Positions 1,603 through 41,911 of a DNA stretch of 64,000 nucleotides are shown in pieces. Numbering within the stretch: position 1 is the stretch's first letter; each line of letters opens with the position of its first letter. Under the pieces are notes generated by a model that saw nothing but the letters and a program-made list of their open reading frames with translations, did no database searches and was not told where the DNA came from. Made by a program: the position numbers and the translations under genes. Source of the stretch: Candidatus Dormiibacterota bacterium (GTDB lineage Bacteria; Chloroflexota; Dormibacteria; Aeolococcales; Aeolococcaceae); contig JBAUTG010000005.1 in assembly GCA_049582105.1 (NCBI GenBank), positions 2,672 to 66,671 of the forward strand. Direction: 5' to 3'.

Positions 1603-2457
1603 GTGGCCATCCAGGCGAATAAACCGAACAGCCGAGTCTTCTTGCTTCTTGGCATCGTGCTGGCTGCGGCGGCGGCGGTGGCCGTGCTGCTCCTGGTCCG
1701 CTCGAATGCGCCAGCGAATCAAGTCAGTGTTGTCGTGTCTGATGCGGCCATACCCGCAGGAACGACCTTGACTCCCGCAATGGTCATCGTGACGCAGGTC
1801 CCCGCCGCTGCAAAGCCGGGTGACGCGTTCACCGATCCGGTCGCCGTCGTCGGCAAGACCACCACGGTCGCACTGGCAGACAACACGCCGCTCGTGCCTG
1901 CATTCTTCTCGACTCCCGCGCTCTCGATCACCTCGAGTGGCACCGGCTCGACCGCGCTCTCCGTGGAGACGCAGATCACCAAGGGATACGTCGCACTCGC
2001 GATTCCGGCGTCCGCAACGCTCCCGCCGACGTACACATCGGCGCAGCAGAACAACTTCACCGGCGAGCTCGTCTCTGCTGCCGGCTACATCCTGCCCGGC
2101 GATCACATCGACATCCTGGTCACCTCGATCGCGAACGGTGCGATCAAGTTCAGCTTCCAGGACGTCATCGTGCTCCGCGTGGGCGCATCCGGTACCACGG
2201 CCACGGGCGCACCCGCGGTGCTCCTCGTCGAGGTCCCGCGCGCACAGGCGTCACTGCTCACCGGCCTCATGATCGGAGACGGTGACCATGAGATCGTGGT
2301 CAAGTACGTGCTCCGTCCAGAGTCCGAGTGGGGCAAGCTTGCTCCCGACGGCTCGAGCTACAAGCCGAACTACGAATCGTCCGGTTCGCCGTCGCTGCCG
2401 ACCGTGTCGCAGACCACCGTGACGCCCAGCATGCTGGACAGTCTCTTCGGCGGCTGA
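1603..2457 (+). CDS. cpaB: Flp pilus assembly protein CpaB/RcpC (SAF plus RcpC C-terminal domain)
   Basis: There is an N-terminal TM helix ('VFLLLGIVLAAAAAVAVLLLV'), a SAF-like beta-rich core and the C-terminal block 'GDHIDILVTS...VIVLRVG', all typical of CpaB. It sits directly upstream of tadB. Confidence 0.8.
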   Translation: MAIQANKPNSRVFLLLGIVLAAAAAVAVLLLVRSNAPANQVSVVVSDAAIPAGTTLTPAMVIVTQVPAAAKPGDAFTDPVAVVGKTTTVALADNTPLVPAFFSTPALSITSSGTGSTALSVETQITKGYVALAIPASATLPPTYTSAQQNNFTGELVSAAGYILPGDHIDILVTSIANGAIKFSFQDVIVLRVGASGTTATGAPAVLLVEVPRAQASLLTGLMIGDGDHEIVVKYVLRPESEWGKLAPDGSSYKPNYESSGSPSLPTVSQTTVTPSMLDSLFGG

Positions 2458-2463
2458 TAAGTC

Positions 2464-3444
2464 ATGACGCCAGCCGCCGTCGTCGCAGCGGCCTTGGCCG
2501 CGTCGGCAGTCCTTTCGATCTTCGCCTTCCTCCTCAGCCGGGGTCAAAGCCAGGCTGGGGAGATGGCTCGCCGCCTCAACCAGTATGGCGGCGAGACGGT
2601 CGCCGTCACGGCACCGCAGAGGGTGAAGACCGGCAACGCGCTGCGGGACGCGCTCGAAGCGGTCACCAATGGCCTGAACCCACTCCTCTCGCGCACGTCA
2701 CACACCGGCAAGCTCGCGGACGACCTCCAGAAGGCCGACCTCAAGCTGAAGTCGTCGGAGTGGCTGCTCATGGTGGTGGGGCTCGGCGTCCTTGTCGGCC
2801 TGCTCGTGGCATTGCGCTTCTCCTCGCCGATCGCCTTCATCCCGTGCCCGATCATCGTGTATGTGCTCAGCGGCTTCTTCCTGAAGTTCCGCCAGAAGCG
2901 ACGGACCCGCGCGTTCAACAACCAGCTCGGCGACACGTTGATGTTGCTGAGCAACGCGTTGAAGGCAGGGCACTCCTTCGCGCAGGCGCTGGCGTCGGTT
3001 GCGAAGAACGCGAACCCGCCGATCTCCGAGGAGTTCAGCCGCGCAACGCGTGAGATCGCCCTCGGCATCAACGTCGACGAGGCGCTCAACCACATGGTCA
3101 CGCGCAACAAGTCCGAGGACTTCGATCTCATGGTCACCGCCGTGCAGATTCAGCGTGTGGTCGGTGGAAACCTCGCCGAGATCCTCGACACCATCGCGTT
3201 CACCATTCGTGAGCGCGTGCGCATCCAGGGTGAGATCCGCACGCTCACCGCGCAGGCTCGCGCGTCCGGTTGGATCATCACCATCCTGCCGATCGCACTC
3301 GCAGGATTCCTCGCGCTCATCTCCCCAAGCTACTTCGATCCGATGATCACCGATCCGCTTGGACACATCATGCTCGGCATGGCGGTCTTCTCCATTGCGG
3401 TCGGCGCCGTCGCGATCCAGAAGATCGTGAAGATCGAGGTCTGA
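2464..3444 (+). CDS. tadB: Tad secretion system inner-membrane platform protein TadB (T2SS F domain)
   Basis: It has the T2SSF-type motif 'LGDTLMLLSNALKAGHSFAQAL' and three TM segments, 7 nt downstream of cpaB. Confidence 0.85.
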   Translation: MTPAAVVAAALAASAVLSIFAFLLSRGQSQAGEMARRLNQYGGETVAVTAPQRVKTGNALRDALEAVTNGLNPLLSRTSHTGKLADDLQKADLKLKSSEWLLMVVGLGVLVGLLVALRFSSPIAFIPCPIIVYVLSGFFLKFRQKRRTRAFNNQLGDTLMLLSNALKAGHSFAQALASVAKNANPPISEEFSRATREIALGINVDEALNHMVTRNKSEDFDLMVTAVQIQRVVGGNLAEILDTIAFTIRERVRIQGEIRTLTAQARASGWIITILPIALAGFLALISPSYFDPMITDPLGHIMLGMAVFSIAVGAVAIQKIVKIEV

Positions 3445-3445
3445 C

Positions 3446-4390
3446 GTGAGTCTTCTCGCCATCGCAGCCGCCGCGGCCGCCGCCGGCGGCATCCTCCTCA
3501 TCGCCTTCGGCCTCGCCATGGCCGTGTCCCCACGCCAGGGCGATCTGCTTGAGGCTCGCCTCGCGCAATTCGCCGAGGCTGGGCGCGCGCCCGCGACTCT
3601 CGCCGAGGTCGAGATGTCGTTGCCGCTCTTCGATCGCGTGGTGCGGCCGTTCCTCGACAAGATCGGCAATCGCCTGAATCGCAATGCGGGTCAGGGCAGC
3701 ACAGACGCGCTTCAGGAGAAGTTGAATCTTGCCGGCCGTCCATGGGGACTGACGGCGTCGGGCTTCCTCGCACTCCGCCTGCTCTCGATGCTGCTGTTCA
3801 CCGCAATCGGGTTCGCGCTCGCGCTCTTCGGCGCGCTGACGATGCCGCTGCTCGCCGTCGTGCCGGCCGGCGGTCTGATCCTCGGGTACCTCGGTCCTCA
3901 GATGGTCGTCGCGCGGCGCATCAAGAAGCGTCAGAAGGAAATCCTCCTCGCGCTGCCGAGCGCACTCGACCTCCTCACCATCTCGGTCGAGGCCGGTCTG
4001 AGCTTCGACTCGGCGCTCACCCGCGTCGTCGACAAGTACAACAACGAGTTCTCGAGAGAGCTCACGATCATGCTCAACGAGGTTCGCCTCGGCCGCCCAC
4101 GTCTCGAGGCGCTCGATGACGTCGGTCGGCGTTGCAAGGTCGAGGAGCTGAGCAACTTCATCCAGGCGATCATCCAGTCGGAGCAACTGGGCGTCGGCGT
4201 CGCGAACGTCCTCCGCATCCAGTCCGAGGAGATTCGCCGCAAGCGCCGTCAGCGCGCTGAGGAACAGGGCCAGAAGGCCCCGCTGAAGATGCTCTTCCCC
4301 ATGGTCGGGTGCATCTTCCCCACGCTCTTCATCGTGCTGCTCGGTCCCGCCGTGATCGAGGTCGCCCACCAGTTCGGCGCCGCCCACTGA
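3446..4390 (+). CDS. tadC: Tad secretion system platform protein TadC (T2SS F domain)
   Basis: It has the motif 'LPSALDLLTISVEAGLSFDSAL'. It starts at GTG 1 nt after the tadB stop and has TM helices at both ends. Confidence 0.85.
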   Translation: MSLLAIAAAAAAAGGILLIAFGLAMAVSPRQGDLLEARLAQFAEAGRAPATLAEVEMSLPLFDRVVRPFLDKIGNRLNRNAGQGSTDALQEKLNLAGRPWGLTASGFLALRLLSMLLFTAIGFALALFGALTMPLLAVVPAGGLILGYLGPQMVVARRIKKRQKEILLALPSALDLLTISVEAGLSFDSALTRVVDKYNNEFSRELTIMLNEVRLGRPRLEALDDVGRRCKVEELSNFIQAIIQSEQLGVGVANVLRIQSEEIRRKRRQRAEEQGQKAPLKMLFPMVGCIFPTLFIVLLGPAVIEVAHQFGAAH

Positions 4391-8333: not shown

Positions 8334-9665
8334 TTGCTGCAGCACGGCATTCCACGTCGGCACGAATCGCCGTACCATGCGCACGATGCACGGCGGATGC
8401 GAGGTGCGGCGGTGATCCGCGTTCTGATAGCGGACCGAGTGACGCGAATCGTCGGAGACCTCGAGAAGCTCGCGCCCTTTGCTGAGACCGTCGACGTCTG
8501 CGGTGTCGCCCACCAACCGACGGCGGTCATCGAGGAGGCGTGGCTGCGCCAGCCCGATGTGCTCCTCCTCCACGAGACCTTCGCCGACCCGTCGGGCGCC
8601 GACTTCGCCGCCCATCTCGGGTCCGTGTCACCCGCGACCCGGGTGCTCCTCATGACCTCGAGCGAGCCGGCTGACGCGACCGCCTGGGTCGCGGGCACCA
8701 TCCATGACGGCGCCGACGGCACCGCGCTGTTCGAGGCGATTCGCGTCACGGCCGGGGTCATCCGGCCACGCGGTGGCGCGGGCGCCGAAACCTCGGAGCC
8801 GGACGCCGAGGCGCCGCCCGTGGTGGTCCCCGACCGCGAGCACCACGGACGCGCGACACTCGTCGTCGTCTTCTCGGGGAAGGGCGGCTCCGGGACCTCG
8901 ATGGTCGCCACCAACCTCGCCGTCGCGCTGGCGGGTAGCGCGGAGGGGCGGACCGTCCTCATCGACTCGGACCTCCAGTTCGGCGATGCCGCAGCGATGC
9001 TCCATGTGGAGAGCCATCTGCTGACGATCGCCGACCTCGCGGCTGCCGGTGAGGACATCGAGGCCGTCTTCCTCGACGATGTCCTGGCAACCGGGCCCGG
9101 CGAGGTCCGCGTCCTCCGCTCGGCGCCGAGCCCCGAGCTCGCCGACATCGTGACCGCGTCACGGCTTCGCGCAATGATCCGCGCGATCTCCACGTCGTAC
9201 GAGTTCGTGGTGGTCGACACACCCTCTCATCTCGACGAGCGCATGGTCGAGGTCTTCGATCTCGCCGATCGTGTGCTCGTGGTGAGCAGCTACAACCTGA
9301 CCGCCGTGCGCAGCGCCAAGGCGTCGATCGCGCTCCTCGAAGCGCTCGGGGTCACCCGCGACCGGATCGGAGTCGTCCTCAACCACACACGGCCGCGCGT
9401 GAGCTTCCGGCGCGAGGACGTCGAGGAGATCCTGGGCTGCCGCGCCCTGGCCGACCTGCCCTACGACCCCCGGGTCGACCAGTCGCTCGACTCGGGATCG
9501 CCGATCGTCCTCGCCCTGCCTCACGCCGAGCTGAGCCGGAGGCTCGTCATGCTCGCCGGGAGCGTGTCGTCGCCGTCAACCGCGCCTGGCACGTCTCCTT
9601 CCGAGGAACCGATGCCCGCACCGCCGCCAACCTACCGCCGGCGATTCAACCTGGGGCGGAGGTAA
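8334..9665 (+). CDS. cpaE: CpaE/TadZ-like ParA/MinD-family ATPase with an N-terminal pseudo-receiver domain (paralogue 1)
   Basis: It has the deviant Walker A 'VVFSGKGGSGTSMVATNLAVALA'. The N-terminal receiver-like fold lacks the phospho-acceptor Asp ('DVLLLHETF'). The start is probably ATG 8397 or GTG 8412, the latter preceded by GAGGTG. Confidence 0.75.
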   Translation: MLQHGIPRRHESPYHAHDARRMRGAAVIRVLIADRVTRIVGDLEKLAPFAETVDVCGVAHQPTAVIEEAWLRQPDVLLLHETFADPSGADFAAHLGSVSPATRVLLMTSSEPADATAWVAGTIHDGADGTALFEAIRVTAGVIRPRGGAGAETSEPDAEAPPVVVPDREHHGRATLVVVFSGKGGSGTSMVATNLAVALAGSAEGRTVLIDSDLQFGDAAAMLHVESHLLTIADLAAAGEDIEAVFLDDVLATGPGEVRVLRSAPSPELADIVTASRLRAMIRAISTSYEFVVVDTPSHLDERMVEVFDLADRVLVVSSYNLTAVRSAKASIALLEALGVTRDRIGVVLNHTRPRVSFRREDVEEILGCRALADLPYDPRVDQSLDSGSPIVLALPHAELSRRLVMLAGSVSSPSTAPGTSPSEEPMPAPPPTYRRRFNLGRR

Positions 9666-9674
9666 GGTGGCGCC

Positions 9675-10931
9675 GTGATTCGCGTCCTGATCGCCGACGG
9701 CAGCGAACGCATCCGCGCAAACCTCCAGCGCCGCCTCTCCGCCGAGGAGGACATCACCGTCTGTGGCACGGCCGAAGACGGTGAGCACGCCCTCCAGGAG
9801 GCACTGCATCTGGTACCCGATATCGCCGTCCTCGACGCCGGCCTGAGCGGCCTCGACGGGGTCCAGACCACCGAGATGCTCGCCGAGTACGCGCCCCAGG
9901 CCGGCGTCATCCTCATGTCGATGGAGAGCGGGAGCGAGCTCTTCCGCCGGGCGATGCTCGCCGGCGCGCGCGAGGTGCTGCAGAAACCCTTCACCGGCGA
10001 CGACCTGGTCGCAGCGATCCACCGCGTCCATGCATTCCAGGCGCGCAAGCGGGCTGCTCAATCGGCGCGTCAGCCCGCCAACGGTGGAGCGCCCCCGGCG
10101 GACGGAGCCCGGCGCCGGGACGGCCGGATGATCACCATCGTCTCGGGAAAGGGCGGTGTCGGCAAGTCGATCATCGCGACGAACCTCGCGCTGATCCTGA
10201 ACCGCCCGAACCCCGGCAGCGTGGTCCTTGTCGACCTCTCCCTCCAGTTCGGCGACGTCGCGGCGCTCCTGGCGATGACCCCGGACGGGACGATTGCCGA
10301 GTTCGCCGCAAGCGACGCCTCGATCGCCGATCGCCACGTGATCCAGCAGGCACTCTCGCTCGGCCCCCAGGGGCTCACCGTGGTCGCCGCCCCGCCGAGC
10401 CCTGAGCTGGCCGACTATGTCACCACCGCTCATCTGCGCTCGCTCGTCGCCGAGCTCCGCGCGACCTACGAGATGGTGGTGGCTGACACGACTTCCCAGC
10501 TCTCGGAGATCACGCTCGAGGCGCTCGAGAACTCGGACCACATCGTGCTCGTCACGGACTTCAGCGTGACCTCGGTGAAGAACACCCGCATGATCATGTC
10601 CGTGATCGGGGTGCTCCAGGTCGACCCCGAACGGATCATCGTCGTCGCCAACCACCGCGATGCGCCGCTCGCCGGGGGGATGGACAGGGCGCGGATCGAG
10701 GACTTCCTCCGTCACCCGGTCGCGGCGGAGATCCCCCATGACGCGGTTGCGATCGGCGCCTCGGTCAGCCTGGGCGTCCCCGTGGTCATCAGCGGCCACT
10801 CGTCGCCCGCGACTGCCGCGTTCGAGCGCCTCGCCGCCGTGGTGCTGGGAAATGCCGGACCCGAAACGCCTGCCGAGCCGCCGGGCAAGAAACGCGGCCG
10901 CAGACGCCTGGGATTCGCGTCAAGGGATTGA
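9675..10931 (+). CDS. cpaE: receiver-domain-CpaE/TadZ-like ATPase fusion (paralogue 2, canonical receiver)
   Basis: The receiver has 'IRVLIADGSE', 'IAVLDAGLSGLDG' and 'LQKPF'. The Walker A is 'ITIVSGKGGVGKSIIATNLALIL'. Confidence 0.8.
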   Translation: MIRVLIADGSERIRANLQRRLSAEEDITVCGTAEDGEHALQEALHLVPDIAVLDAGLSGLDGVQTTEMLAEYAPQAGVILMSMESGSELFRRAMLAGAREVLQKPFTGDDLVAAIHRVHAFQARKRAAQSARQPANGGAPPADGARRRDGRMITIVSGKGGVGKSIIATNLALILNRPNPGSVVLVDLSLQFGDVAALLAMTPDGTIAEFAASDASIADRHVIQQALSLGPQGLTVVAAPPSPELADYVTTAHLRSLVAELRATYEMVVADTTSQLSEITLEALENSDHIVLVTDFSVTSVKNTRMIMSVIGVLQVDPERIIVVANHRDAPLAGGMDRARIEDFLRHPVAAEIPHDAVAIGASVSLGVPVVISGHSSPATAAFERLAAVVLGNAGPETPAEPPGKKRGRRRLGFASRD

Positions 10932-10980
10932 TGTCGGAGGCCCGCGGGCCGCACGGGCCGCCGGCCACTGACCCTCGCGA

Positions 10981-12210
10981 TCAGCGGCCGAAGATGCGGC
11001 GCTTTCTCTTGTCGTCGGCCTTGCCGGCGCCGACCCCGGCCGCGATGGGTTGAGCGCCCGGGACGAGCGCCCCGGCGAGCTCGCGGATCGAACGGCTGAT
11101 GTCGGACTCCGGGCTGGCCGTCACGAAGGGCGTCCCGCGATTGATCGAGTCGCCGACGACCCTGGGGTCGTAGGGGATCTGCGCGCCGACTGTGTGCCGG
11201 AGGTTCTGCTCGATCGAGTCCTTGTTGAAGTCCGAGTGTGCGTCACTGCGGTCGACGACAAGGAGGATCGAAGCCGGATCGACGGTGAGCGACTCGAGCA
11301 CCTTGAGCGCGAGCTTCGCGTCCTTGATCGCCGGGATCGTGAGCGCCGTGACCACGAGGACGTGCTGCGCTGATTCGATCACCTCGAGGTTGAAGTCCGC
11401 GAGATGGCACGAGGTGTCGACCACCACGTAGTCGTATGTCTTGCGCAGCTCGGCCATGACCATGCGGACGTGGTCGTTGGTGATGAGGTCGGCGAGCTCA
11501 GGGCTGATCGGTGCGAGCAGGACGCGAACCCCACCCGGACCGTGCGCCATGATCTCGTTCAGCATCTCCGGCTCGAGCGTTTCCGAGTCGACGACGTCGG
11601 TGATGCTTCGACTGTGGTCCAGGTTGAGCATCACGCCGATGTCGCCGAACTGCAGGTCGAGGTCGACCAGGGCCACGCGCGACTCGGTCTCGACCGCGAG
11701 CGCCACCGAGAGGTTGGTGGCCAGCATCGTCTTTCCGACGCCACCTTTGCCCGAGAACAGCACGATCACCTCACCGAGCGCCGCCGCTCGTGGCGCACCT
11801 GAGGCGTCCGGCAGCGACGCCCGCGCGAACGTCCCCTTCTTCTCCTCGAGCTGATGCACACGGCGGATCGCCGCGACGAGCTCGTCATGGCTGAAAGGCT
11901 TGATGAGGTACTCGCGAGCACCCGCCTGCATCGCGCGGCGGAGGTAGTCGCGCTCGCCCTGGACCGACATGATGATCACCGGCGAGGCCGGCAACTCCTG
12001 GGCGAGCCGCTCGGTGAGCTGGATCCCGTCCATGATCGGCATGTTCACGTCCGTGAGGACGATGTCGGGCAGCAGGCGGTGCGCCTCCTCGAGGCCCTGC
12101 TTGCCGTCGCCGGCAGTACCGATGACCTCGATGTCCTCTTCGAACCCGAGGAGCTTGCGCAGGTTGTCCCGAGTGCTCGCGATGTCGTCGACGATGAGGA
12201 GCCGGATCAA
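10981..12210 (-). CDS. cpaE: receiver-domain-CpaE/TadZ-like ATPase fusion (paralogue 3, canonical receiver)
   Basis: The receiver has 'IRLLIVDDIAS', 'IVLTDVNMPIMDG' and 'LIKPF'. The Walker A is 'IVLFSGKGGVGKTMLATNLSVALA'. It starts at TTG (12208-12210), 13 nt after the rplA stop. Confidence 0.8.
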   Translation of the reverse strand: MIRLLIVDDIASTRDNLRKLLGFEEDIEVIGTAGDGKQGLEEAHRLLPDIVLTDVNMPIMDGIQLTERLAQELPASPVIIMSVQGERDYLRRAMQAGAREYLIKPFSHDELVAAIRRVHQLEEKKGTFARASLPDASGAPRAAALGEVIVLFSGKGGVGKTMLATNLSVALAVETESRVALVDLDLQFGDIGVMLNLDHSRSITDVVDSETLEPEMLNEIMAHGPGGVRVLLAPISPELADLITNDHVRMVMAELRKTYDYVVVDTSCHLADFNLEVIESAQHVLVVTALTIPAIKDAKLALKVLESLTVDPASILLVVDRSDAHSDFNKDSIEQNLRHTVGAQIPYDPRVVGDSINRGTPFVTASPESDISRSIRELAGALVPGAQPIAAGVGAGKADDKRKRRIFGR

Positions 12211-12223
12211 ATCGAAGGCGTCC

Positions 12224-12934
12224 TCAGCCCACCGTCAGCCGTGCTGCCTGAACGGGGTCGACCGGGATGCCCGGTCCCATGGTCGAGGCAACGGTCACGG
12301 TCTTCACGTAGGTGCCCTTTGCCCCCGACGGCTTGGCTCGAACGATCGCATCCATCAAAGCGGCGAAATTGTCGCGCAGTTTGTCGTCATCGAACGAGGC
12401 TTTACCGATTGCGGCATGAATAATTCCAGTCCTGTCATTTCGGAACTCGACGCGACCACCCTGGACGTCCTGGATTGCCTTGGCGATGTCGAAGGTGACG
12501 GTGCCCGCCTTGGGGTTCGGCATGAGGCCGCGCGGGCCGAGGATCTTGCCGAGGCGCCCGACCATCCCCATGACCTCCGGGGTGGCGAGAGCGACGTCGA
12601 AGTCGATGACGCCCTCCTGGACCTTCTTGACGAGGTCCTCACCACCCACCACGTCGGCGCCCGCCTCGATTGCCTCGCGCAGCTTCTCGCCGGTGGCGAA
12701 GACGGCGATTCGCCGGACCTTGCCGGTGCCGTGGGGCAACGTGACCGTGCTCCGCACGACCTGGTCGGCGTGGCGCGGGTCGATGCCGAGACGGACGTGC
12801 GCCTCGATGGATGAATCGAACTTGGTGGTCGCGGTCTGGCGGACCAGGCTCATCGCCTCCGCGGGCGGATAGAACTTGCCGTCCTCGATCGCCCCGGCGG
12901 CCTCGCGGTACTTCTTGCCGTGTTGTGCGGGCAT
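12224..12934 (-). CDS. rplA: 50S ribosomal protein L1
   Basis: The sequence '[55 protein letters not shown]' is an unmistakable L1. Confidence 0.95.
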
Positions 12935-12985
12935 GTGACTTCTCCGTGGTGTTGGCGGGCGCCCGGCGCCCTCCCACTCAGTGGC

Positions 12986-13408
12986 TCAGTTGACGTTCAG
13001 ACCCATGGATCGCGCCGTCCCCTCGATGATCTTCATCGCGTGCTCGAGGTCATGCGCGTTGAGATCCGCCTGCTTGACCTCGGCGATCTCGCGGACCTGC
13101 TGCCTGGACAGCGTGCCCACCTTCTCCCGGTTCGGGACGCCCGAGCCCTTCTCGACTCCAGCGGCCTTCTTCAGCATCTCCGCGGCAGGCGGCGTCTTGG
13201 TGATGAACGTGAACGTGCGGTCCTCGTACACCGTGATCTGTGCGGGGATGACCCCCGACTGGTTCGCGGTGCGCTCGTTGTAGGCCTTGCAGAACTCCAT
13301 GATGTTGAGTCCGTGCGGACCGAGCGCGGTGCCCACCGGCGGTGCGGGAGTCGCCTTGCCGGCCTGCAACTGCAGTTTGATGACGGTCTTGATCTTCTTC
13401 TTGCTCAT
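12986..13408 (-). CDS. rplK: 50S ribosomal protein L11
   Basis: It has the L11 signature '[40 protein letters not shown]'. Confidence 0.95.
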
Positions 13409-13420
13409 CTGTCCTCGCCC

Positions 13421-13984
13421 CTATCGCAACCGTTCGACCTGAAGCAGGTCGAGCTCGACGGGCGTCTCGCGGCCGAACATGTTCACGAGCACCTTCAGCT
13501 TGCCCTTCTCGACGTTGATCTCAGTCACCTTGCCGTGGAAGTCGGTGAACGGACCGTCGATGACGCGCACGTTCTCGCCGACCTCGTACTCGACGTTGAC
13601 CTTGGTCGGAGCCTCGGCTTTCACCTGCTTCTGGATGCCCCGAATCTCGTGCTCCTGCAACGGAACGGGCTTGTTCCCCGAGCCGACGAACGACGTGACT
13701 CCGGGAGTGTTGCGAACGACATACCAGGACTCGTCGGACATGACCATGTTGACGAGGATGTAACCGGGGAAGATCCGCTTGCTGACCTTGCGGCGCTGGC
13801 CGTCCTTGATCTCCATGACCTCTTCGGTCGGCACGAGCACGTCGAAGATCTGGTCATGCATGTCCATCGACTCGACACGCTTGAGAAGGTTCGCGCGAAC
13901 TTTCTCCTCGTGTCCCGAGTAGGCGTGGACGACGTACCAGCGAGCGTCCTTGGCGGAAACGGCGTTAGTGACCACGATGCTCAT
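13421..13984 (-). CDS. nusG: transcription termination/antitermination factor NusG
   Basis: The NGN domain is 'WYVVHAYSGHEEKV'. The KOW domain is 'GENVRVIDGPFTDFHGKVTEIN'. Confidence 0.95.
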   Translation of the reverse strand: MSIVVTNAVSAKDARWYVVHAYSGHEEKVRANLLKRVESMDMHDQIFDVLVPTEEVMEIKDGQRRKVSKRIFPGYILVNMVMSDESWYVVRNTPGVTSFVGSGNKPVPLQEHEIRGIQKQVKAEAPTKVNVEYEVGENVRVIDGPFTDFHGKVTEINVEKGKLKVLVNMFGRETPVELDLLQVERLR

Positions 13985-13997
13985 TCTCCCACGGCGG

Positions 13998-14378
13998 CTA
14001 CGGCGACACAGTTGGCAGCGGTATCTCGGTCGGGATGGTGGTCGGCAGCGGCGCCGCGGTCACCGGCGAGGTGATCGCGGTTGGCGACGGCACTGCGGTG
14101 GCAGAGGCGGCCTGCGATTTGATCGCCTGCCCGACCCCGAGGCTGAGGATGTAGTCCGCTCCGCCGACGAGGGCGGCAAAGATGACCACCGTCGCGATGA
14201 CGATCCCGGTCATCCGGAGCAGCTCGTCCCGCGCCGGCCAGACCACCTTCTTGAGCTCCTCCCACACGCCGCGGAGGTAGCCCGCCAGGCCAACCCTCCC
14301 GGATCCACCGGATCCGGCTCCGGGCAGAGCCGGCCGAGGTGGCCGCGAGCTTCCCGGTGCGATACGAGCCTTGGCCAT
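13998..14378 (-). CDS. secE: preprotein translocase subunit SecE
   Basis: It contains 'YLRGVWEELKKVVWPARDELLRMTGIVIATVVIFAALVG'. The track ORF (to 14447, GTG) would overlap tRNA-Trp, so the start was moved to the internal ATG at 14376-14378 ('MAKARIAPG'). Confidence 0.8.
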   Translation of the reverse strand: MAKARIAPGSSRPPRPALPGAGSGGSGRVGLAGYLRGVWEELKKVVWPARDELLRMTGIVIATVVIFAALVGGADYILSLGVGQAIKSQAASATAVPSPTAITSPVTAAPLPTTIPTEIPLPTVSP

Positions 14379-14432
14379 TGACGCTGCTGTCTCCTGATGG
14401 TGATCCCGGGGCGGGGATCGCTGGTTGCGTGA

Positions 14433-14508
14433 TGGCAGGGGCGGCACGACTCGAACGCGCGACCCTCGGTTTTGGAGACCGATGCTCTACCAGCTGAGCT
14501 ACGCCCCT
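14433..14508 (-). tRNA. tRNA-Trp (anticodon CCA)
   Basis: The reverse complement reads AGGGGCGTAGCTCAGCTGGTAGAGCATCGGTCTCCAAAACCGAGGGTCGCGCGTTCGAGTCGTGCCGCCCCTGCCA. This matches the canonical bacterial tRNA-Trp cloverleaf, with a CUCCAAA anticodon loop and a CCA end. It sits in the classic position upstream of secE. Confidence 0.9.
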
Positions 14509-14512
14509 TCGG

Positions 14513-14680
14513 TTACTTGGTCTCGCGGTGCTGCCTGTGCACGCGGCAACGCCTGCAGAACTTGCGCAACTCCAGGCGGTCCGGGTCGTTGCGCTTGTTC
14601 TTGACCGTCGTGTAATTGCGTTCCTTGCACTCGTTGCACTGCAACGTGATGATCGAGGAACCGCCCTTGGCTGTGGCCAC
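14513..14680 (-). CDS. rpmG: 50S ribosomal protein L33 (not in the ORF track)
   Basis: Manual translation of the reverse complement gives (GTG)[55 protein letters not shown]. This is the L33 zinc-ribbon signature (C-x2-C...C-x2-C) with the 'TKNKRN...RLELRKFC' block. Confidence 0.85.
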
Positions 14681-14860
14681 GTGTCAACGCCTCAACACAA
14701 AAGAGACCTAGCGGCGCTAGGTCGGAAAGCAGTTTACCACAGATCCTGAGGGCCGCCAAATGCCTTTGGCAGGCGGATCGTCACCGGGTCGCCAACCCCC
14801 CGTCCGTCGATTCGGACTACCCTTGGAGGAAGCAAACGCTCATTCCGGGGGACCGTCGCC

Positions 14861-15352
14861 ATGCATCCGCTGCTCAGTCCGAAGAACCTGCTCATTGCCG
14901 GCCTTGGAGCCGCCGTCCTCGGGCTTGGCACCGTTGTTGCCGTCGATCACACCGCCGGCGCCTCCGCCACGACCCAGTCCGCCGCACTCTCCTCCTCGAC
15001 GACCACGACGCCCAGGCTGCCGAGCTTCGGCTCCGGCGGGTTTGCCGGGGTCACCCAGTTCAAGAACGAGGCGTCCAAGGTCTTCGACTTCGTGACCAGG
15101 GACACCAAGCTCACCTGGCAGCAGATCGGCGCCGACCTGCTTGCGGGCAAGACCCTGGATCAGATCGCGGGTCCGAACGCAGCCAGGGTGGCGAGTGACG
15201 CACTTGCCGAGGTCAGGGCAGGGCTGAACCAGGGCGTCTCGAAGGGCGTGATCACACCGGCCGAGGAGACCCGCCTGGTCGCCGACGCGCGGGATGCTAT
15301 CTCTGTGCTGATGGCCGCAAAGTTGAGCGCGCTGGCCCCGACGGGACACTGA
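14861..15352 (+). CDS. hypothetical secreted or membrane-anchored protein
   Basis: It has an N-terminal hydrophobic segment ('LLIAGLGAAVLGLGTVVAV') followed by an S/T-rich linker and a small globular region. The overlapping antisense ORF 14840..15616 is R/G-rich junk. Confidence 0.45.
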   Translation: MHPLLSPKNLLIAGLGAAVLGLGTVVAVDHTAGASATTQSAALSSSTTTTPRLPSFGSGGFAGVTQFKNEASKVFDFVTRDTKLTWQQIGADLLAGKTLDQIAGPNAARVASDALAEVRAGLNQGVSKGVITPAEETRLVADARDAISVLMAAKLSALAPTGH

Positions 15353-16244
15353 CCGGCCGGCCGCGCAGGTCGGCGATCGCCGCGCTCTCGAGCGGTGGAT
15401 GGAGCATGCACTCCTTGTCGGAGTTCCCCTCCCACCACCATCGCCCGGCTCGCTCACCCTCCCCCGGCGCCGTCGCGCGCGTGCACGGCGCGCACCCGAT
15501 CGACGTGTACCCCCGCGCGTACAGCGGATGCGCCTCGATCCCCCGCGCAGACAGGTAGTCCCACACCTCCTCCCGCGTCCACCCCGCCAGCGGCACCACC
15601 TTGGTGATGTCCCCATGGCCTCGGTCCGACGCCACCACCGGCGTCGCCGCCCGCGTCGGCGTCTGCTCCCGGCGCAGTCCCGTGATCCACGCGTCGTACC
15701 CCTCGAGCGCCCGCGCCAGCGGGTTCACCTTGCGCACCGCGCAGCACTCGTTGCGCAGCTCGATCGAGCGCCGGAACTGCATCGTCCCGTGCTCCCCGGT
15801 CATCGCCTCCAGCTCCTCCGCGTCCGGCGACAGGATCCGCAGCCGGATCGGGTAGCGCTCCCGCACCTCCTCCATGTAGCCCAGCGTCTCCTCGTGGAGC
15901 CGCCCCGTGTCAAGGGTCAGCACCTCCGGGTGCGCCACGATCCGGCACGCCAGGTCGATCAGCACCAGCGACTCCGCCTGGAAGCTCGCCACCAGCGCCA
16001 CCCGCCGAAAGCGCTTGTACGTCCACGCCAGGATCTCCTCCGCCGTCCCCTCCGGCGGCGTCACCGCGATCACCAAGACGCCTGGACCACGAAGAGCACC
16101 GGGTTCGACGCCGTGGTCGCGCTGAGGTCGGAATCGCGGGGGCTCACGGCGCACATGATCAGGCAATCTCCTCGATTGCGAACGGATGAGCGTGAAACTC
16201 GGACGGGAGCATTGGGTCTCTGCTTTCTCGTTGTATCGCGCCAC
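15297..16244 (-). CDS. cysH: phosphoadenosine phosphosulfate / adenylylsulfate reductase (CysH family)
   Basis: It has the PAPS-reductase fold ('ALVASFQAESLVLIDL', 'LDTGRLHEETLGYMEEV') and the C-terminal 'GYTSIGCAPCTR...RWWWEGNSDKECMLH' motif typical of the Fe-S-containing APS reductase subclass. The N-terminal ~50 residues of the track ORF are low complexity, so the real start is probably internal. Confidence 0.8.
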   Translation of the reverse strand: MARYNEKAETQCSRPSFTLIRSQSRRLPDHVRREPPRFRPQRDHGVEPGALRGPGVLVIAVTPPEGTAEEILAWTYKRFRRVALVASFQAESLVLIDLACRIVAHPEVLTLDTGRLHEETLGYMEEVRERYPIRLRILSPDAEELEAMTGEHGTMQFRRSIELRNECCAVRKVNPLARALEGYDAWITGLRREQTPTRAATPVVASDRGHGDITKVVPLAGWTREEVWDYLSARGIEAHPLYARGYTSIGCAPCTRATAPGEGERAGRWWWEGNSDKECMLHPPLESAAIADLRGRPVSVPSGPARSTLRPSAQR

Positions 16245-31849: not shown

Positions 31850-34393
31850 GTGCCGTCCTGGACGCAGCACACTCATCCGGTGCGTGCCCTCGCTGCCGAT
31901 CCGCGCCTTGACGTCCTGACGCAACTCGGACATCGCCTGCCGCGCACGCGGAGCCCCGAGGAGGCGGCTCATGAAGTGACCGCCGCGCTCGGCGCGCTCC
32001 AGCTGGCTGCGGTCGTGAGCGCCGTCGAATCCGACATCGCCGTGCTGATGTCGGTGAACATCCCGACCAGCCTCCAGCCGCGGCTGTCGCGGGAGATGGC
32101 GGCGAGCGTGATTGGGATGCGGCTCCCCCTCGATGGAGTCGAGTCACTCCGCCAGCCGGTTCGGCTTCGCCGCGTCTACTACGGTCCGGCATCCGTCTCC
32201 GAGACGCTCCGCCGCCTGACCACCGACTCTGCGCTGGCCAAAACGCTTCCCAATGCGAACGACGAGCGCAATGTGCTCTCGGTGCCGGTCACCTGTCGCG
32301 ACCGCGTCGTCGCGGTGCTCATTGTTTTCGGTTCGGGGTGCAGCCCCGCGCTCGGCCCGGTGCTCGAGGTCGTGGCCGCGATGCTCGCCGCGGCATGGTC
32401 GAGCGGGGCGCAGCCTGCGTTCGGGCGATTCGACGCGCCTGTCTCGGCCACCCCCGACCCGGAGTTGCGCGCCATCATCGATCAGCTCCTGGCCGGAGGC
32501 AGCATCGTGTCGGCGTTGCAGCCGATCGTCCGCCTCAACAACGAGACGGTCATCGGCTACGAAGCGCTCGCCCGCTACCCACCACGTGCCCGGATCGGGA
32601 CCCCCGACGAGCTGTTCGCCTCTGCGGCGACGCTCGGAATGCAATCGGCAGTGGACCTCGCGTGCGTGAGCGCCGCCCTGCATGCTGCGGCAAACATCGG
32701 CGAGGCCGATCTCTTCGTCAACGTCCTGATCGGCACACTCGTCGACCAGCGCGGCGTCGCCGCGCTTGACAAGGCCGTTCGCGACGCACGGGTTGATCCC
32801 ACATCGATCGTCCTCGAGTTCAGTGAGCGCGAACCGGTGCCGGATCTCGCGCTGCTCCAGCGCATTGCCGCGGAGCTCCGCGCTCGCGGTTTCCGCATCG
32901 CGGTCGACGACGCCGGTGCCGGCCACGCGAGCATGCGCGTCATCGCCGAGCTCCGACCGGAGTTCATCAAGGTCGACCGATCGCTGATCCAGGCGGTCGA
33001 CTCGGACCGCGCCCGCCGGGCACTCGTGGTCGCGATGCTCTCCTTCAGCGGCCACATCGGTGCCCGCGTCATCGCCGAGGGCATCGAGACGGTGCGCGAA
33101 CGCGAGACGCTGCAGTCGCTCGGCGTGCAGTTCGGACAGGGATGGCTGCTCGGCCGGCCCGTTCTCATGCACGAGCTCGAGGGCAACAGGGAGGAGGTTG
33201 TCGATCCCACCTGGTTCGCGCGCCGTCAGGTCTCGCCGACTCGCGTCGGCACGGCAGCAACTGATGCGCCGGAACCCGAAGTGTTCCGGGAGGAGCCGGT
33301 CCAGGCAAGACCCGCGCGGCGTGGACTCGCCCGGGCACTGAGCGACGCCGCACTTGCACTCCAGAGTGAGCACGATCCCATGCGAATCCTGGGGGTGATG
33401 GCCGATCAGATGAGCCGTGTGATCCAGGTCACCGAGATGGCGATCTTCGTCGCCGACTACGAGACGTTCCGCCTCGTCCCTGTGCTGGCCACGGGTCCCG
33501 ATCGCGACGAGATCCTTGCCGACAGCATGTCGCTCGATGCCGGCATCACCGGGTGGGCGTTCGCGAGAGGGACTCCGCAGAACATCCCCGACACGTCGAA
33601 GCATCCACTCGCTCGTCAGATCCCCGGGACGGCATACGTCGAGGAATCGCTCCTGCTCGTGCCACTTGTGGCGACCGAGCACAAGCTCGGCATCATCAAC
33701 TGCTGGCGCCTCGGCGTTGCGCAGTTCAGCGATCGCGAGCTCGAGGCGGCTTCATTGTTCGCTCACGTTGCCGCGTCGGCGTGGCGGAACGCGCAGCTCT
33801 ACGTCGAGCTCGTCAACGCCGCCATGACCGATCCGCTGACACGTCTGTACAACAGCCGCTGGCTGCACGACACCGGCGAGCGCGACCTGGCGCGAGCGGA
33901 ACGCGAGTGCAAGCCGCTGTCGCTCCTGCTCGTCGACCTCGATCACTTCAAAGCGGTGAACGACAGCAGCGGCCACGCCATCGGGGATCTGCTGCTCCAG
34001 CGAGTCGCGACGCAATTGCGTACCACTGTGCGCGGCACCGATGCAGTCGTGCGTCTCGGCGGTGAGGAGTTCGTCGTGCTGCTCCACGAATGCACGACCG
34101 AGTCGGCGATGGCGGTGTCCGAGGCGGTGCGTGCGGCAGTCCGCGACGTCACGATGCCGGAGGGCTGCAGCCTTGGTCAGCTGACAGCGTCGGTCGGTGT
34201 CGCGACCTACCCCGACCACGGTCGCGACCTCGATCAGCTGCTCGGCGCGGCAGACCGCGCCATGTACGCGGCCAAGCACGAGGGCCGGGACCGGACGGTT
34301 CGCGCGCTGCCGATGGCAGGCGCCGGAAAGATCATCCCGCTGCCCCGCCGGCGGGCTCCTCGCGGAAGCCCGAAGCTCGTCTCCAGGAGCTGA
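31850..34393 (+). CDS. multidomain c-di-GMP turnover protein: GAF-like, EAL, GAF, GGDEF
   Basis: The EAL domain has 'QPIVRLNNETVIGYEALARY', 'EFSERE', 'DDAGAGHAS', 'EGIET' and 'QGWLLGRP'. A second GAF follows ('INCWRLG'). The GGDEF domain has 'DLDHFKAVND...RLGGEEFVVLL'. Confidence 0.85.
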   Translation: MPSWTQHTHPVRALAADPRLDVLTQLGHRLPRTRSPEEAAHEVTAALGALQLAAVVSAVESDIAVLMSVNIPTSLQPRLSREMAASVIGMRLPLDGVESLRQPVRLRRVYYGPASVSETLRRLTTDSALAKTLPNANDERNVLSVPVTCRDRVVAVLIVFGSGCSPALGPVLEVVAAMLAAAWSSGAQPAFGRFDAPVSATPDPELRAIIDQLLAGGSIVSALQPIVRLNNETVIGYEALARYPPRARIGTPDELFASAATLGMQSAVDLACVSAALHAAANIGEADLFVNVLIGTLVDQRGVAALDKAVRDARVDPTSIVLEFSEREPVPDLALLQRIAAELRARGFRIAVDDAGAGHASMRVIAELRPEFIKVDRSLIQAVDSDRARRALVVAMLSFSGHIGARVIAEGIETVRERETLQSLGVQFGQGWLLGRPVLMHELEGNREEVVDPTWFARRQVSPTRVGTAATDAPEPEVFREEPVQARPARRGLARALSDAALALQSEHDPMRILGVMADQMSRVIQVTEMAIFVADYETFRLVPVLATGPDRDEILADSMSLDAGITGWAFARGTPQNIPDTSKHPLARQIPGTAYVEESLLLVPLVATEHKLGIINCWRLGVAQFSDRELEAASLFAHVAASAWRNAQLYVELVNAAMTDPLTRLYNSRWLHDTGERDLARAERECKPLSLLLVDLDHFKAVNDSSGHAIGDLLLQRVATQLRTTVRGTDAVVRLGGEEFVVLLHECTTESAMAVSEAVRAAVRDVTMPEGCSLGQLTASVGVATYPDHGRDLDQLLGAADRAMYAAKHEGRDRTVRALPMAGAGKIIPLPRRRAPRGSPKLVSRS

Positions 34394-34395
34394 CC

Positions 34396-35157
34396 TCAGG
34401 GGATGTCCCGGCGGATCGTGAAGATCCACCCGGAGACCGCGAAGAGCAATCCCCACGCGACCAGCACGACGCCTCCGACCCAGGGGTCGAGCAAGGTCGA
34501 GCCCGGCCGCCCACCACCGGTGATCGCACTGGCGGCGGCGCCCGGCAGGTATGGGTAGACGTTCTTGACGACAGGGATGATCTGGATCAGCGGCTCGATC
34601 ACGAAGAGATACGCGAGCGCCGCGATCACCGCGGCGATCTGATTGCGGACGAGCACGCCGATCCCGATGCCGACAACGGCGAAGATGGCGATGACGACGA
34701 TCGCGCTGAGCAGCGATTCGAGGACTCCACCGCCGATCCACTGGATCGTGACCCCCTTTGCGCTGAGCCACGGCACCATGATCGCGACTGCGGTCGCAGC
34801 ACAGACAACGCCATAGACGATCCCGACCAGTGCGGCGACCATCATCTTGGCGACGATCACCAGGCCGCGCCTCGGCTCGATCAGGAACGTCGGGCGCGAC
34901 GTGAAGTGACGGAACTCGATCGTGATCAGGATGATCCCCACCACGATCGAGAAGAGATAGGCACTCGCCGCGGACGCTGCGATCGACTTCTGCGTTGCGG
35001 CGTCGCTCAACGGGAGCGCGACGCTGCCGCGCACCCCGTTGCTCGCGATGAGCGCGACGACGCCGAGCGAGGTCAGCGCCATCGCGCCAAGCAACATCCC
35101 CCACCAGAGCTTCGTCGTCAGCACCTTGCGCCACTCGGCGCGGAGCAGATTGGTCAC
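34396..35157 (-). CDS. ABC-2 family transporter permease
   Basis: It is a six-TM protein ('LWWGMLLGAMALTSLGVVALIAS...'), with its start overlapping the upstream ATPase gene stop. Confidence 0.75.
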   Translation of the reverse strand: MTNLLRAEWRKVLTTKLWWGMLLGAMALTSLGVVALIASNGVRGSVALPLSDAATQKSIAASAASAYLFSIVVGIILITIEFRHFTSRPTFLIEPRRGLVIVAKMMVAALVGIVYGVVCAATAVAIMVPWLSAKGVTIQWIGGGVLESLLSAIVVIAIFAVVGIGIGVLVRNQIAAVIAALAYLFVIEPLIQIIPVVKNVYPYLPGAAASAITGGGRPGSTLLDPWVGGVVLVAWGLLFAVSGWIFTIRRDIP

Positions 35158-36098
35158 GCCGGTGGCCCGGCAGAGGAAGGAGCATCGGGCGGGTCGGCGG
35201 TCAGACGGAGGAACGTCTCCTCGAGGCTGGAGCTCCCCGCCCGGAGCTCGTGGATCTCGACGTGCGCCGCCCAGGCGGCGTGGCCAACCGCGGCGGGGGT
35301 GGCACCGACGATTGCCACCGAGCCATCCGGCCGCGACGTGATCTTGGCGTTGAGCGGCGCGAGCGCCGCACCGAGCGCGTCCGGCGTCGGGGTGCGCACG
35401 ATGACACCGGCGCTCGCCCCCTCGAGGTCGTTGAGCCTGCCCTCGTATATCAGATGTCCCTTGGCGACGATCACCACGCGGTCGACCGTCTGCTCGACCT
35501 CCGACAGGATGTGGCTGGAGACCAGCACGGTGCGGCCCTCGGCGTCGGCAAAGTGCCGGAGGAGCGCGCGGAGCCAGGCGATGCCCTCCGGGTCGAGGCC
35601 GTTTGCGGGCTCGTCGAGCAGGAGGACCCTCGGATCGCCGATCAGCGCCGTGGCGAGGCCGAGACGCTGGCGCATGCCGAGGGAGAACCCGCGCACCGCG
35701 TACTTCGCGGCCGGGGTCAGCCCGACCATCTCGAGCACGGCATCAGCACGGGCATCCGGAACGCCGGCGGCCGCGCAGAACACGCGGAGGTGATTGCGCG
35801 CCGATCGGCCTGGATGGAAGCTCGTCGCCTCGAGGACCGCGCCCACGGTCCGGCCCGGGGCGGGGAGGTGCGCGTACGCGACCCCGTTGATGGTGCTGGT
35901 ACCGGCGGTCGGCGTCGCCAGTCCGAGGAGCATCCGCAGGGTCGTGGTCTTCCCGGCACCGTTGGGTCCGAGGAATCCGGTGACCGACCCCGGTTCCACA
36001 GCGAAGCTCAGGTTGTCAACGGCTTTGATCGGCCCGAACACCTTCGTCAGGCCGGAGGCGACGATGCGCCCTTCGCCGGCGGCAGCCGTGACGCTCAC
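35154..36098 (-). CDS. ABC transporter ATP-binding protein
   Basis: It has the Walker A 'GPNGAGKTT', the ABC signature 'LSLGMRQRL' and the Walker B 'LLLDEP'. Confidence 0.9.
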   Translation of the reverse strand: MSVTAAAGEGRIVASGLTKVFGPIKAVDNLSFAVEPGSVTGFLGPNGAGKTTTLRMLLGLATPTAGTSTINGVAYAHLPAPGRTVGAVLEATSFHPGRSARNHLRVFCAAAGVPDARADAVLEMVGLTPAAKYAVRGFSLGMRQRLGLATALIGDPRVLLLDEPANGLDPEGIAWLRALLRHFADAEGRTVLVSSHILSEVEQTVDRVVIVAKGHLIYEGRLNDLEGASAGVIVRTPTPDALGAALAPLNAKITSRPDGSVAIVGATPAAVGHAAWAAHVEIHELRAGSSSLEETFLRLTADPPDAPSSAGPPA

Positions 36099-36120
36099 AC
36101 CGTCACGTTCGATCGCGGCT

Positions 36121-36477
36121 TCAGCGGGCAGCGACCTCTGCGCCGAGATGCGCGTGCGCCCATTCGCCGAGCGCCATCAGCGCCGGGCGCAGCGCCTCGC
36201 CGCTCGGCGTGAGCCGGTACAGCGATGCGATGGGTGGCCCCTCGAGGACCTCGCGGGTCACGAGCCCGGCGTCCTTCAACTCGGCGAGGCGCGTCGAAAG
36301 CATGCTCTCCGTGATGCCCGGGATCGCGCGCGCGATCTCAGCAAAGCGCGCCGGCCGCTCGAGGAGCACTCCGATCACAAGCCCGGTCCAGCGCTTGCCC
36401 AGGACGCTGAACACCGACGTCAACGCGACGTCGCACTGAATCGCAACCGTCCGGCAGCCGGCATCCACGTGCAGCAT
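36121..36477 (-). CDS. HxlR family (MarR-like winged-helix) transcriptional regulator
   Basis: It contains 'CDVALTSVFSVLGKRWTGLVIGVLLERPARFAEIARAIPGITESMLSTRLAELKDAGLV'. Confidence 0.75.
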   Translation of the reverse strand: MLHVDAGCRTVAIQCDVALTSVFSVLGKRWTGLVIGVLLERPARFAEIARAIPGITESMLSTRLAELKDAGLVTREVLEGPPIASLYRLTPSGEALRPALMALGEWAHAHLGAEVAAR

Positions 36478-36885
36478 CCTACCGCCTCGTGGCCCTGCGA
36501 CCTAGTGACTTGTTACGGCCGAGTAACTACGGAATCGCGAGGGAGCCAGCGCCGGCCTCTCCGCCACGCCAAGGGATTGCTCCCTGGAACGGACCCTGCA
36601 GTACGGGACTGCATCGTCAGAAACGGCACCGCGCATTGCATCGCTGCAACCGCCGGACACAAAGCTGTCGCGTTCACCGTGTACGTGCGCTTGCGAACAG
36701 ACCACACGCCCGCACTGCACCACCCTTCGCATGGCGGGACCTTCTTGCCACCCGTCCTCAAGGTGACCCAAGTGTCCGTGCGGCTCCCCGACCCGTCGAC
36801 TGCAGAGGCGCTGCCCGCGAGCGCCCACGGCAGACCGGCTGTCCTCCATCGCACTGTGGTCGGAAGAAAGGTGCATCAGGGAGCG

Positions 36886-38730: not shown

Positions 38731-38784
38731 CGCCGGCTGCCGCACCGCGTCCGCCCGCCCACCCACTCCCGCGGCGGGCAACGT

Positions 38785-41700: not shown

Positions 41701-41856
41701 CGTGATGCCGTGGTCCTGGTCATTCCGCTCAGGCGCAAGGCCTGACCCGTCAGCGCGCACGATCCTGAAGTGACCACTCGGCCAGCCGAACAGGAACTGG
41801 AACCCGATCATCCCGGCAAGGAGCAGGATCACGACAACCAGGATCACGTCGAGCAT
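38785..41856 (-). CDS. hybrid sensor histidine kinase: TM, GAF, PAS, HisKA, HATPase, receiver, receiver, HPt
   Basis: The H-box is '[18 protein letters not shown]'. The HATPase G-boxes are '[21 protein letters not shown]'. There are two receivers ('[10 protein letters not shown]', '[11 protein letters not shown]...[14 protein letters not shown]'). The C-terminal HPt is '[14 protein letters not shown]'. Confidence 0.9.
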
Positions 41857-41911
41857 CAGATGCGCTCCATGCCGGTCAACGACGTCAGGGGCCGCATCGG
41901 GTTCGATGCAT

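Follow-up and report, generated by a model that had tools for sequence, protein, structure and literature searches.

A TadZ/CpaE-type ATPase gene directly behind rplA, probable last cistron of a ribosomal operon in Candidatus Dormibacterota

The window analysed here, a 64,000-nucleotide (nt) stretch of contig JBAUTG010000005.1 from a Candidatus Dormiibacterota bacterium, carries a ribosomal operon in which rplA, the gene for ribosomal protein L1, is followed after 13 nt not by rplJ-rplL but by cpaE3, a gene for a receiver domain joined to a MinD/ParA-type ATPase. The junction had been pointed out in an original prediction made from the letters of the window. It recurs in relatives and is a conserved feature of a clade within Candidatus Dormibacterota. 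The explanation that fits best, and which we hold to be probable as a whole, is that cpaE3 was relocated from a tad operon and has become the last cistron of the ribosomal unit, with its translation coupled to that of rplA and tuned down.

The ribosomal operon and its junction with cpaE3

The whole operon is carried on one strand, the minus strand, and its parts are listed here in the order of transcription.

14513-14680, minus strand: rpmG (ribosomal protein L33), GTG start; PF00471 76.9 bits, TIGR01023 78.5 bits
14433-14508, minus strand: tRNA-Trp (CCA), with the rpmG stop 4 nt before it; ARAGORN, Rfam RF00005 66 bits
13998-14378, minus strand: secE; PF00584 64.4 bits, TIGR00964 57.8 bits
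13421-13984, minus strand: nusG, 13 nt past the secE stop; TIGR00922 227 bits (cut-off 135.7)
12986-13408, minus strand: rplK (L11), 12 nt past the nusG stop; TIGR01632 203.5 bits
12224-12934, minus strand: rplA (L1), 51 nt past the rplK stop, TGA stop at 12226-12224; TIGR01169 326.6 bits
12211-12223, minus strand: rplA/cpaE3 spacer of 13 nt, GGACGCCTTCGAT on the minus strand; read from the sequence
10981-12210, minus strand: cpaE3, 409 amino acids, receiver plus MinD/ParA ATPase, TTG start, predicted last cistron of the unit; PF00072 102.4 bits plus ParA/AAA_31/CbiA

The order rpmG-tRNATrp-secE-nusG-rplK-rplA given in the original prediction was borne out at these positions by Pfam, NCBIfam, ARAGORN and Rfam, and the equivalog NCBIfam models for L33, NusG, L11 and L1 each scored above their cut-offs. 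The longest open reading frame (ORF) for secE, 13998-14447, runs into the tRNA-Trp gene. The ATG at 14378, with AGGAGA 9 nt to its 5' side, is the likeliest start of secE, and orthologues are called at 119-124 amino acids. Plus-strand ORFs lying over the operon (e.g. 11854-12423, 11969-12814 and 12920-14074) are taken to be spurious, as all of them fail a filter on guanine plus cytosine (GC) content by codon position (above 0.78 at third and below 0.60 at second positions). A search of 10500-15500 against Rfam (E ≤ 1) returned the tRNA and one chance-level small RNA match, and nothing else.

Reading of the sequence confirmed that cpaE3 begins with a TTG codon, at 12210-12208, 13 nt after the rplA stop and on the same strand. 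This start is well supported because the N-terminus it gives, MIRLLIVDD, is the usual beginning of a receiver domain and matches all of the orthologues. The spacer is as tight as those between secE and nusG (13 nt) and between nusG and rplK (12 nt). A Shine-Dalgarno-like GAGGA at 12225-12221 overlaps the rplA stop codon, as had been predicted, and a GGTGG motif in the last codons of rplA recurs in most relatives, near and distant. The original prediction had also seen no recognisable terminator between the two genes. A consensus scan likewise found no terminator-like site in or near the junction, and folding of 12160-12290 gave a stability no better than that of shuffled sequences (z = -0.38).

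Relatives were sought by homologue look-ups on megabase contigs, by a scan of a genome collection with L1 and by a scan of metagenomes with CpaE3; the loci obtained are numbered L001 onwards. The closest homologues of CpaE3 (67-96% identity) are from Candidatus Dormibacterota. An orthologue of cpaE3 stands immediately after rplA, on the same strand, in 44 loci of this phylum including the window, the other 43 encoding proteins with 54-97% identity to CpaE3. In 39 of the 44 loci the two genes are 2-14 nt apart; one locus has a gap of 25 nt, and four have gaps of 66-73 nt. The orthologue starts with TTG in 21 loci, with GTG in 20 and with ATG in only 3 (non-ATG in 41/44). Wherever there was enough upstream DNA, rplA was found upstream of every CpaE3 homologue of at least 67% identity. 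L1 itself falls to 70% identity among the rplA-linked loci, and the conservation of cpaE3 is close to that of L1 (97 versus 99% in one comparison, 68 versus 73% in another). The rplA-cpaE3 junction is thus a conserved clade feature and not an assembly error; the original prediction had named such an error as a way in which it could fail and had proposed a comparison with relatives, and recurrence in 44 Dormibacterota loci excludes the former. A fusion of L1 to CpaE3 by read-through or frameshifting is ruled out, as the relation between the two reading frames differs among loci (spacers of 2, 5, 6, 7, 13 and 14 nt).

The displacement of rplJ-rplL that the original prediction had drawn from the junction also holds. 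No match to rplJ or rplL was obtained in the window (tblastn, and Pfam on the other ORFs), rpoBC was not found there, and neither L10 nor L7/L12 was encoded within the 10-kb flanks of 11 related genomes (L001-L011) or in 32 metagenome loci. For comparison, 69 loci of other phyla with enough downstream sequence were taken from the L1 scan (Chloroflexota including Limnocylindria, Actinomycetota, Bacillota and others). In these rplJ lies no more than 600 nt from rplA in 54 loci and 1.3-3.8 kb away in 8, and is not present within 6.6-10 kb in the remaining 7. Separation of rplKA from rplJL is therefore not rare by itself (15 of the 69). Where genes intervene in the other phyla, the nearest clearly coding ORF on the rplA strand, as judged by high third-position GC, begins about 82 nt or more beyond rplA. 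The order rplA-rplJ-rplL does occur in one locus with a Dormiibacterota label (L020, DASQFY010000122.1), which was rejected as a Dormibacterota counterexample, its L1 being 85-88% identical to that of Limnocylindria. Unrelated receiver-domain genes occur 124 nt after rplA in an Actinomycetales metagenome-assembled genome (MAG; L068) and 447 nt after it in an Oscillospiraceae MAG (L035); these response regulators are probably there by coincidence.

CpaE3, the tad genes and the origin of the junction

In the receiver domain of CpaE3, residues D8-D9, D54, S82 and K104 align with D12, D13, D57, T87 and K109 of CheY, and alignment with MinD places a deviant Walker A motif, GKGGVGKT, in the ATPase domain. 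The receiver residues and the Walker A motif are invariant in 30 orthologues, and the receiver is canonical and, to judge from these residues, probably phosphorylatable. An AlphaFold2 model of the protein has a mean predicted local distance difference test score (pLDDT) of 79, with values above 90 across most of residues 1-80. The fold of the C-terminal domain matches archaeal MinD (1hyq) and a ParA-family protein (3ea0), with Foldseek template modelling scores of 0.79-0.85 normalised to target length. Among the 50 PDB matches listed, none but TadZ of Eubacterium rectale (3fkq; rank 6, 15% identity) spans both domains. CpaE3 scored below the cut-offs of the MinD equivalogs (85.9 against 212.9 bits for TIGR01968 and 104.9 against 201.75 bits for TIGR01969) and of the model for the actinobacterial CpaE homologue Ssd (TIGR03815; 57.9 against 154.45 bits). 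No curated model specific to receiver-containing CpaE proteins was found. Orthologues of CpaE3 are annotated by JGI as 'pilus assembly protein CpaE'. The C-terminal tail, DKKRKRRIFGR (10981-11013), aligns with the membrane-targeting sequence KKGFLKRLFGG of E. coli MinD and ends in an F-G-R that is invariant in the 30 orthologues; in the model the tail has a pLDDT below 50. The tail sequence suggests peripheral membrane binding. By architecture and context, CpaE3 is classed as a positioning ATPase of the TadZ/CpaE type and not as a pilus motor ATPase. The 'pilus-assembly ATPase' of the original prediction is in this respect imprecise, as the motor of the system is CpaF/TadA, whose gene is absent from the window, and CpaE3 is a MinD/ParA protein of the TadZ/CpaE kind.

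Further tad genes and two paralogues of cpaE3 lie in the window on the plus strand.

1603-2457, plus strand: cpaB; SAF/RcpC match
2464-3444, plus strand: tadB; T2SSF match, product 61% identical to TadB of locus L131
3446-4390, plus strand: tadC; T2SSF match, product 54% identical to TadC of locus L131
8049-8249, plus strand: Flp-type pilin gene (…EEGQG/MVEYALILVLIAIVV… in the ORF translation), 5' of cpaE1-cpaE2
8334-9665, plus strand: cpaE1, degenerate paralogue; receiver with DR for DD, H in place of the phospho-Asp and a deletion of the K109 region; Walker A KGGSGTS
9675-10931, plus strand: cpaE2, receiver plus MinD/ParA ATPase, convergent with cpaE3; PF00072 75.1 bits plus AAA_31

The cpaB, tadB and tadC genes are contiguous (1603-4390), and the usual cpaE-cpaF pair is not found between cpaB and tadB. 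In the rplA-linked clade, too, tadB-tadC come straight after cpaB. The counterparts of the pilin gene in L002 match PF04964 (Flp_Fap). The true start of cpaE1 is probably near 8412. With its pseudo-receiver and degenerate Walker A motif, CpaE1 resembles classical TadZ, and it is the fastest evolving of these proteins (85% identity in a genome where CpaE3 has 97%). CpaE2 keeps D54 and the conserved S and K, and is 40% identical to CpaE3 in close relatives. No more than about 10 kb separates cpaE3 from flp, cpaB, tadB and tadC in the window and in L001, L002, L003 and L011. The description of cpaE3 as the 'third' receiver-CpaE gene is right as a count for the window, where it comes after 8334-9665 and 9675-10931, but misleading if taken to mean a minor copy: cpaE1 and cpaE2 are missing from L001, in which cpaE3, next to the tad genes, is the sole copy.

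A second set of homologues, with 55-63% identity, has the gene in a canonical flp-cpaB-cpaE-cpaF-tadB-tadC operon with no rplA nearby (e.g. L131, L112, L137 and L147), and cpaB-cpaE-cpaF are contiguous in 32 loci of this related group. On the sequence comparisons cpaE3 is the orthologue of this tad-operon cpaE, because the canonical protein is 57.6% identical to CpaE3 and only 37.9% and 28.6% identical to CpaE2 and CpaE1, respectively. The simplest reading, assuming that the canonical order is ancestral, is that cpaE appears to have moved from the tad operon to a place behind rplA. The contig labels of MAGs in this part of the data are unreliable, near-identical CpaE proteins carrying Dormibacteraeota, Angelobacter, Limnocylindria or Eisenbacteria names.

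Other genes of the window were noted beside the tad genes. These include a PEMT-like gene, a single-domain receiver and cvpA. The minus-strand segment 5965-7814 encodes the single-domain receiver, an unknown 233-amino-acid protein and a PEMT/ICMT-like methyltransferase, and has been conserved next to the tad genes of L001 and L002. A PEMT-like gene also adjoins the canonical tad operon of the related group (L131), and this shared neighbourhood suggests a functional link between the methyltransferase and the pilus system. At 31850-44032 there is a dense signalling cluster. Three of its products are GAF/PAS-GGDEF-EAL proteins, encoded at 31850-34393 (plus strand), 35794-38730 (plus strand) and 41912-44032 (minus strand), the last of which also has a receiver. 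A hybrid histidine kinase encoded at 38785-41856 (minus strand) contains an Hpt domain and two receivers, and might act as phosphodonor to the receiver-CpaE proteins.

Expression of the unit and alternative explanations

Three elements bear on how the operon would be transcribed.

14731-14759, minus strand: candidate sigma-70-type promoter, predicted; -35 TTGGCG at 14759-14754, 17-nt spacer, extended TG at 14739-14738, -10 TAAACT at 14736-14731
14696-14723, minus strand: leader hairpin GACCUAGC-GCC-GCUAGGUC followed by UCUUUUGUGU, 3' of the candidate promoter and ahead of the rpmG start; called terminator-like by the consensus scan
10937-10989, minus strand: two stable GC-rich hairpins that take in the stop of cpaE3 and the 49 nt separating it from the convergent cpaE2; minimum free energy -44.3 kcal/mol, z = -1.98

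Between 14900 and 10900 the minus strand has a single TAnnnT hexamer, the TAAACT at 14736-14731 upstream of rpmG, and an internal sigma-70 promoter within the window's rplA was rejected for lack of such a hexamer. The layout TTGnCn, 16-17 nt, TGnTAnnnT is discernible 5' of rpmG in L002, L003, L008, L009 and L010 as well as in the window; in L001, L005 and L006 the extended -10 is kept and no -35 is readable. With the consensus scanner the candidate promoter did not reach the threshold. The leader hairpin has an 8-bp stem and a U-rich tail and lies at or near the predicted 5' end of the transcript. Ten Dormibacteria loci, the window among them, have enough sequence upstream for comparison; in 9 of these its stem does not vary, and in L011 it is absent. 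It matches no Rfam family and could be a 5'-terminal mRNA stabiliser or an attenuator of the rpmG-secE-nusG-rplKA unit. At the other end, convergent genes follow cpaE3 in the window, L001 and L002, and cpaE3 is therefore the terminal cistron in these three. The hairpins at 10937-10989 have no U-tract, and 8 of 200 shuffled sequences fold as well; they are the probable 3' end of the unit, acting as a putative terminator.

We strongly infer from the sequence that rpmG-tRNATrp-secE-nusG-rplK-rplA-cpaE3 is one transcription unit. This is the best-supported model because the spacers are short, the adjacency is conserved, no terminator is seen at the junction and TAnnnT occurs only upstream of rpmG. 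The co-transcription put forward in the original prediction agrees with the sequence-level predictors (strand, spacer, adjacency and absence of a terminator or promoter); the transcript itself is a deduction from these. Both the predominantly weak TTG/GTG starts and the Shine-Dalgarno-like sequence, which lies within the end of rplA or overlaps it, are in keeping with a distal cistron coupled to rplA and tuned down. In the mechanism proposed, one sigma-70-like promoter upstream of rpmG would drive the whole unit through cpaE3, and the transcript would end at the GC-rich hairpins in the convergent spacer. Translation of cpaE3 would probably depend on ribosomes arriving from rplA, with its output probably lowered by the weak start. 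The amount of CpaE3 would then follow transcription of the ribosomal/NusG/SecE operon, while its activity would be set after translation by phosphorylation of D54 and ATP-dependent dimerisation. Coupling of cpaE3 expression to growth rate, as originally predicted, would be an extrapolation from the ribosomal operons of model bacteria and is speculative for an uncultured phylum.

A number of observations weigh against this explanation. The GAGGA at the junction is particular to the window genome, close relatives having GAGGT or GAGGG, so that this part of the original prediction is true of the window but not of the clade. The 66-73-nt spacers of four relatives could accommodate a promoter or a processing site; they fold no more stably than shuffled sequences and contain no stable hairpin or U-tract. 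Promoters for alternative sigma factors inside rplA are possible and would be missed by a scan for TAnnnT. Many of the 44 rplA-linked loci are closely related, and counts over them overstate the number of independent observations. The related group with the canonical operon is labelled mostly Ca. Dormibacteraeota by NCBI, with some Angelobacter, Limnocylindria and Eisenbacteria, and the direction of the relocation is read from the canonical operon being the widespread form and not from a rooted phylogeny. Lastly, neither the window nor the flanking DNA of any of 46 loci from the rplA-linked clade yielded a CpaF/TadA homologue. The gene for the pilus motor must be elsewhere in the genome or have been lost, and the clade may no longer build a Tad pilus; a role for CpaE3 in placing one is deduced from its architecture and neighbours.

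Alternatively, cpaE3 might be served by a promoter of its own in the 3' part of rplA, dependent on an alternative sigma factor or on a response regulator, with its position a neutral by-product of rearrangement. The tad neighbourhood is rearranged in the rplA-linked clade anyway, four loci have the longer spacers, and the promoter scanner covers sigma-70-type sites only, from which the rules in Dormibacterota may differ. Against this, spacers of 2-14 nt have been kept in 39 of the 44 loci though L1 diverges to 70% identity, and 12 of 14 representative loci lack TAnnnT throughout the last 300 nt of rplA. Starts other than ATG, and a Shine-Dalgarno-like sequence inside rplA, are what is typically seen in coupled distal cistrons, and none of the other phyla sampled has a foreign gene less than 95 nt from rplA. 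A separate promoter is considered unlikely.

It might also be that CpaE3 has left the Tad pilus for a housekeeping role in positioning, for example at the division site or in the organisation of the envelope or of Sec, which would explain why its gene travels with secE-nusG-rplKA. Such a change of role would suit the lack of a CpaF homologue in all 46 clade loci, the MinD-like basic-hydrophobic tail with its invariant F-G-R end, the fact that the best NCBIfam and fold matches are to MinD, and a conservation close to that of L1; cpaE1 and cpaE2, beside the pilin gene, could fill the pilus role. However, cpaE3 stays within about 10 kb of flp, cpaB, tadB and tadC in five loci (the window, L001, L002, L003 and L011), it is orthologous to the cpaE of canonical tad operons, and CpaE3 has diverged about as far as TadB and TadC (58% versus 61% and 54%). 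In L001 it is present alone, next to the tad genes, and its MinD score is far under the family cut-off (85.9 versus 212.9 bits). We doubt that CpaE3 has been co-opted in this way. A chimera of ribosomal and tad-locus contigs, arising in assembly or binning, might be suspected in an uncultured organism from a group with noisy MAG labels, but is exceedingly improbable in view of 44 loci from different studies and assemblers, with contigs of 0.6-1.4 Mb among them, and of a GC content that is uniform across the junction (0.62-0.70 over 10-15 kb).

Significance and comparison with known systems

A relocated cpaE3 at the end of the ribosomal unit would have consequences of several kinds. The order rplKAJL is among the most conserved in bacteria, and here cpaE3 replaces rplJ-rplL as the tight neighbour of rplA. 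The rplA-cpaE3 junction is a clean genomic marker for this Dormibacterota clade, and it offers a natural example of a ribosomal operon capturing a regulatory or structural gene. It also raises the hypothesis, open to testing, that a slow-growing, uncultured phylum of the soil links positioning of its Tad machine to ribosome synthesis. In a more tentative extension of this idea, the level of a phosphorylation-gated MinD/ParA ATPase would be hard-wired to the operon for L33, SecE, NusG, L11 and L1 and would act as a growth-state checkpoint on the Tad pilus, or on another envelope machine should CpaE3 have been co-opted. If this were true, assembly and placement of the machine would be licensed only during investment in ribosomes and secretion, which would bear on dormancy and persistence in oligotrophs. 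The TadZ/CpaE family and the capture of genes by operons are already known; what is new is their combination, the tightness of the junction and its fixation across a clade. The importance is modest, as no new kind of molecule or mechanism is involved. A literature search returned no description of cpaE behind rplA, nor of a linkage between pilus or Tad genes and ribosomal protein genes in Dormibacterota.

The secE-nusG / rplKAJL-rpoBC cluster is widely conserved among bacteria (PMC12993453). In E. coli, B. subtilis and most bacteria the order rpmG-(tRNA-Trp)-secE-nusG-rplK-rplA, on one strand and with short spacers, is the same as in the window. In the E. coli type of cluster rplA is followed by rplJ-rplL(-rpoBC), whereas in the window a non-ribosomal gene takes that place after a 13-nt spacer. 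Separation of rplKA from rplJL is known from Bradyrhizobium diazoefficiens and Actinomyces israelii (PMC12993453), and in these species, as in Actinomycetota, Herpetosiphon and some Clostridia loci, rplJ-rplL is not beside rplA, just as in the window. The separated lineages show no tight junction with a foreign gene, in contrast to Dormibacteria, where a foreign gene lies 2-14 nt from rplA and is conserved in the clade.

On the protein side, the MinD-like TadZ/CpaE proteins have a polar localisation, and the Tad secretion apparatus requires them for its assembly (PMC11407121). TadZ of Aggregatibacter actinomycetemcomitans, CpaE of Caulobacter crescentus and the TadZ of structure 3FKQ share with CpaE3 the layout of a receiver fold followed by a MinD/ParA ATPase, and cpaE3, like the genes for such proteins, is near tad genes. 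The receiver of classical TadZ is typically atypical and non-phosphorylatable, and tadZ usually adjoins tadA (bioRxiv 10.64898/2026.07.08.737194). CpaE3 differs in having the full set of canonical receiver residues and a standard deviant Walker A motif, and its gene is not beside tadA. The canonical tad operon of the related group agrees with the window in its orthologous receiver-MinD cpaE, its orthologous tadB and tadC and its PEMT-like neighbour. It differs in that cpaE is placed between cpaB and cpaF, whereas in the window cpaE is after rplA and cpaF is gone from the neighbourhood.

Ribosomal operons are known to carry non-ribosomal passengers, such as secY-adk-map in the spc operon, rpoA in the alpha operon and secE-nusG. 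Like cpaE3, these are non-ribosomal cistrons held in a conserved ribosomal unit. They are, however, core housekeeping genes across bacteria, whereas cpaE3 would encode a signal-controlled ATPase for the positioning of a pilus, a passenger for which no parallel was met in the literature searched.

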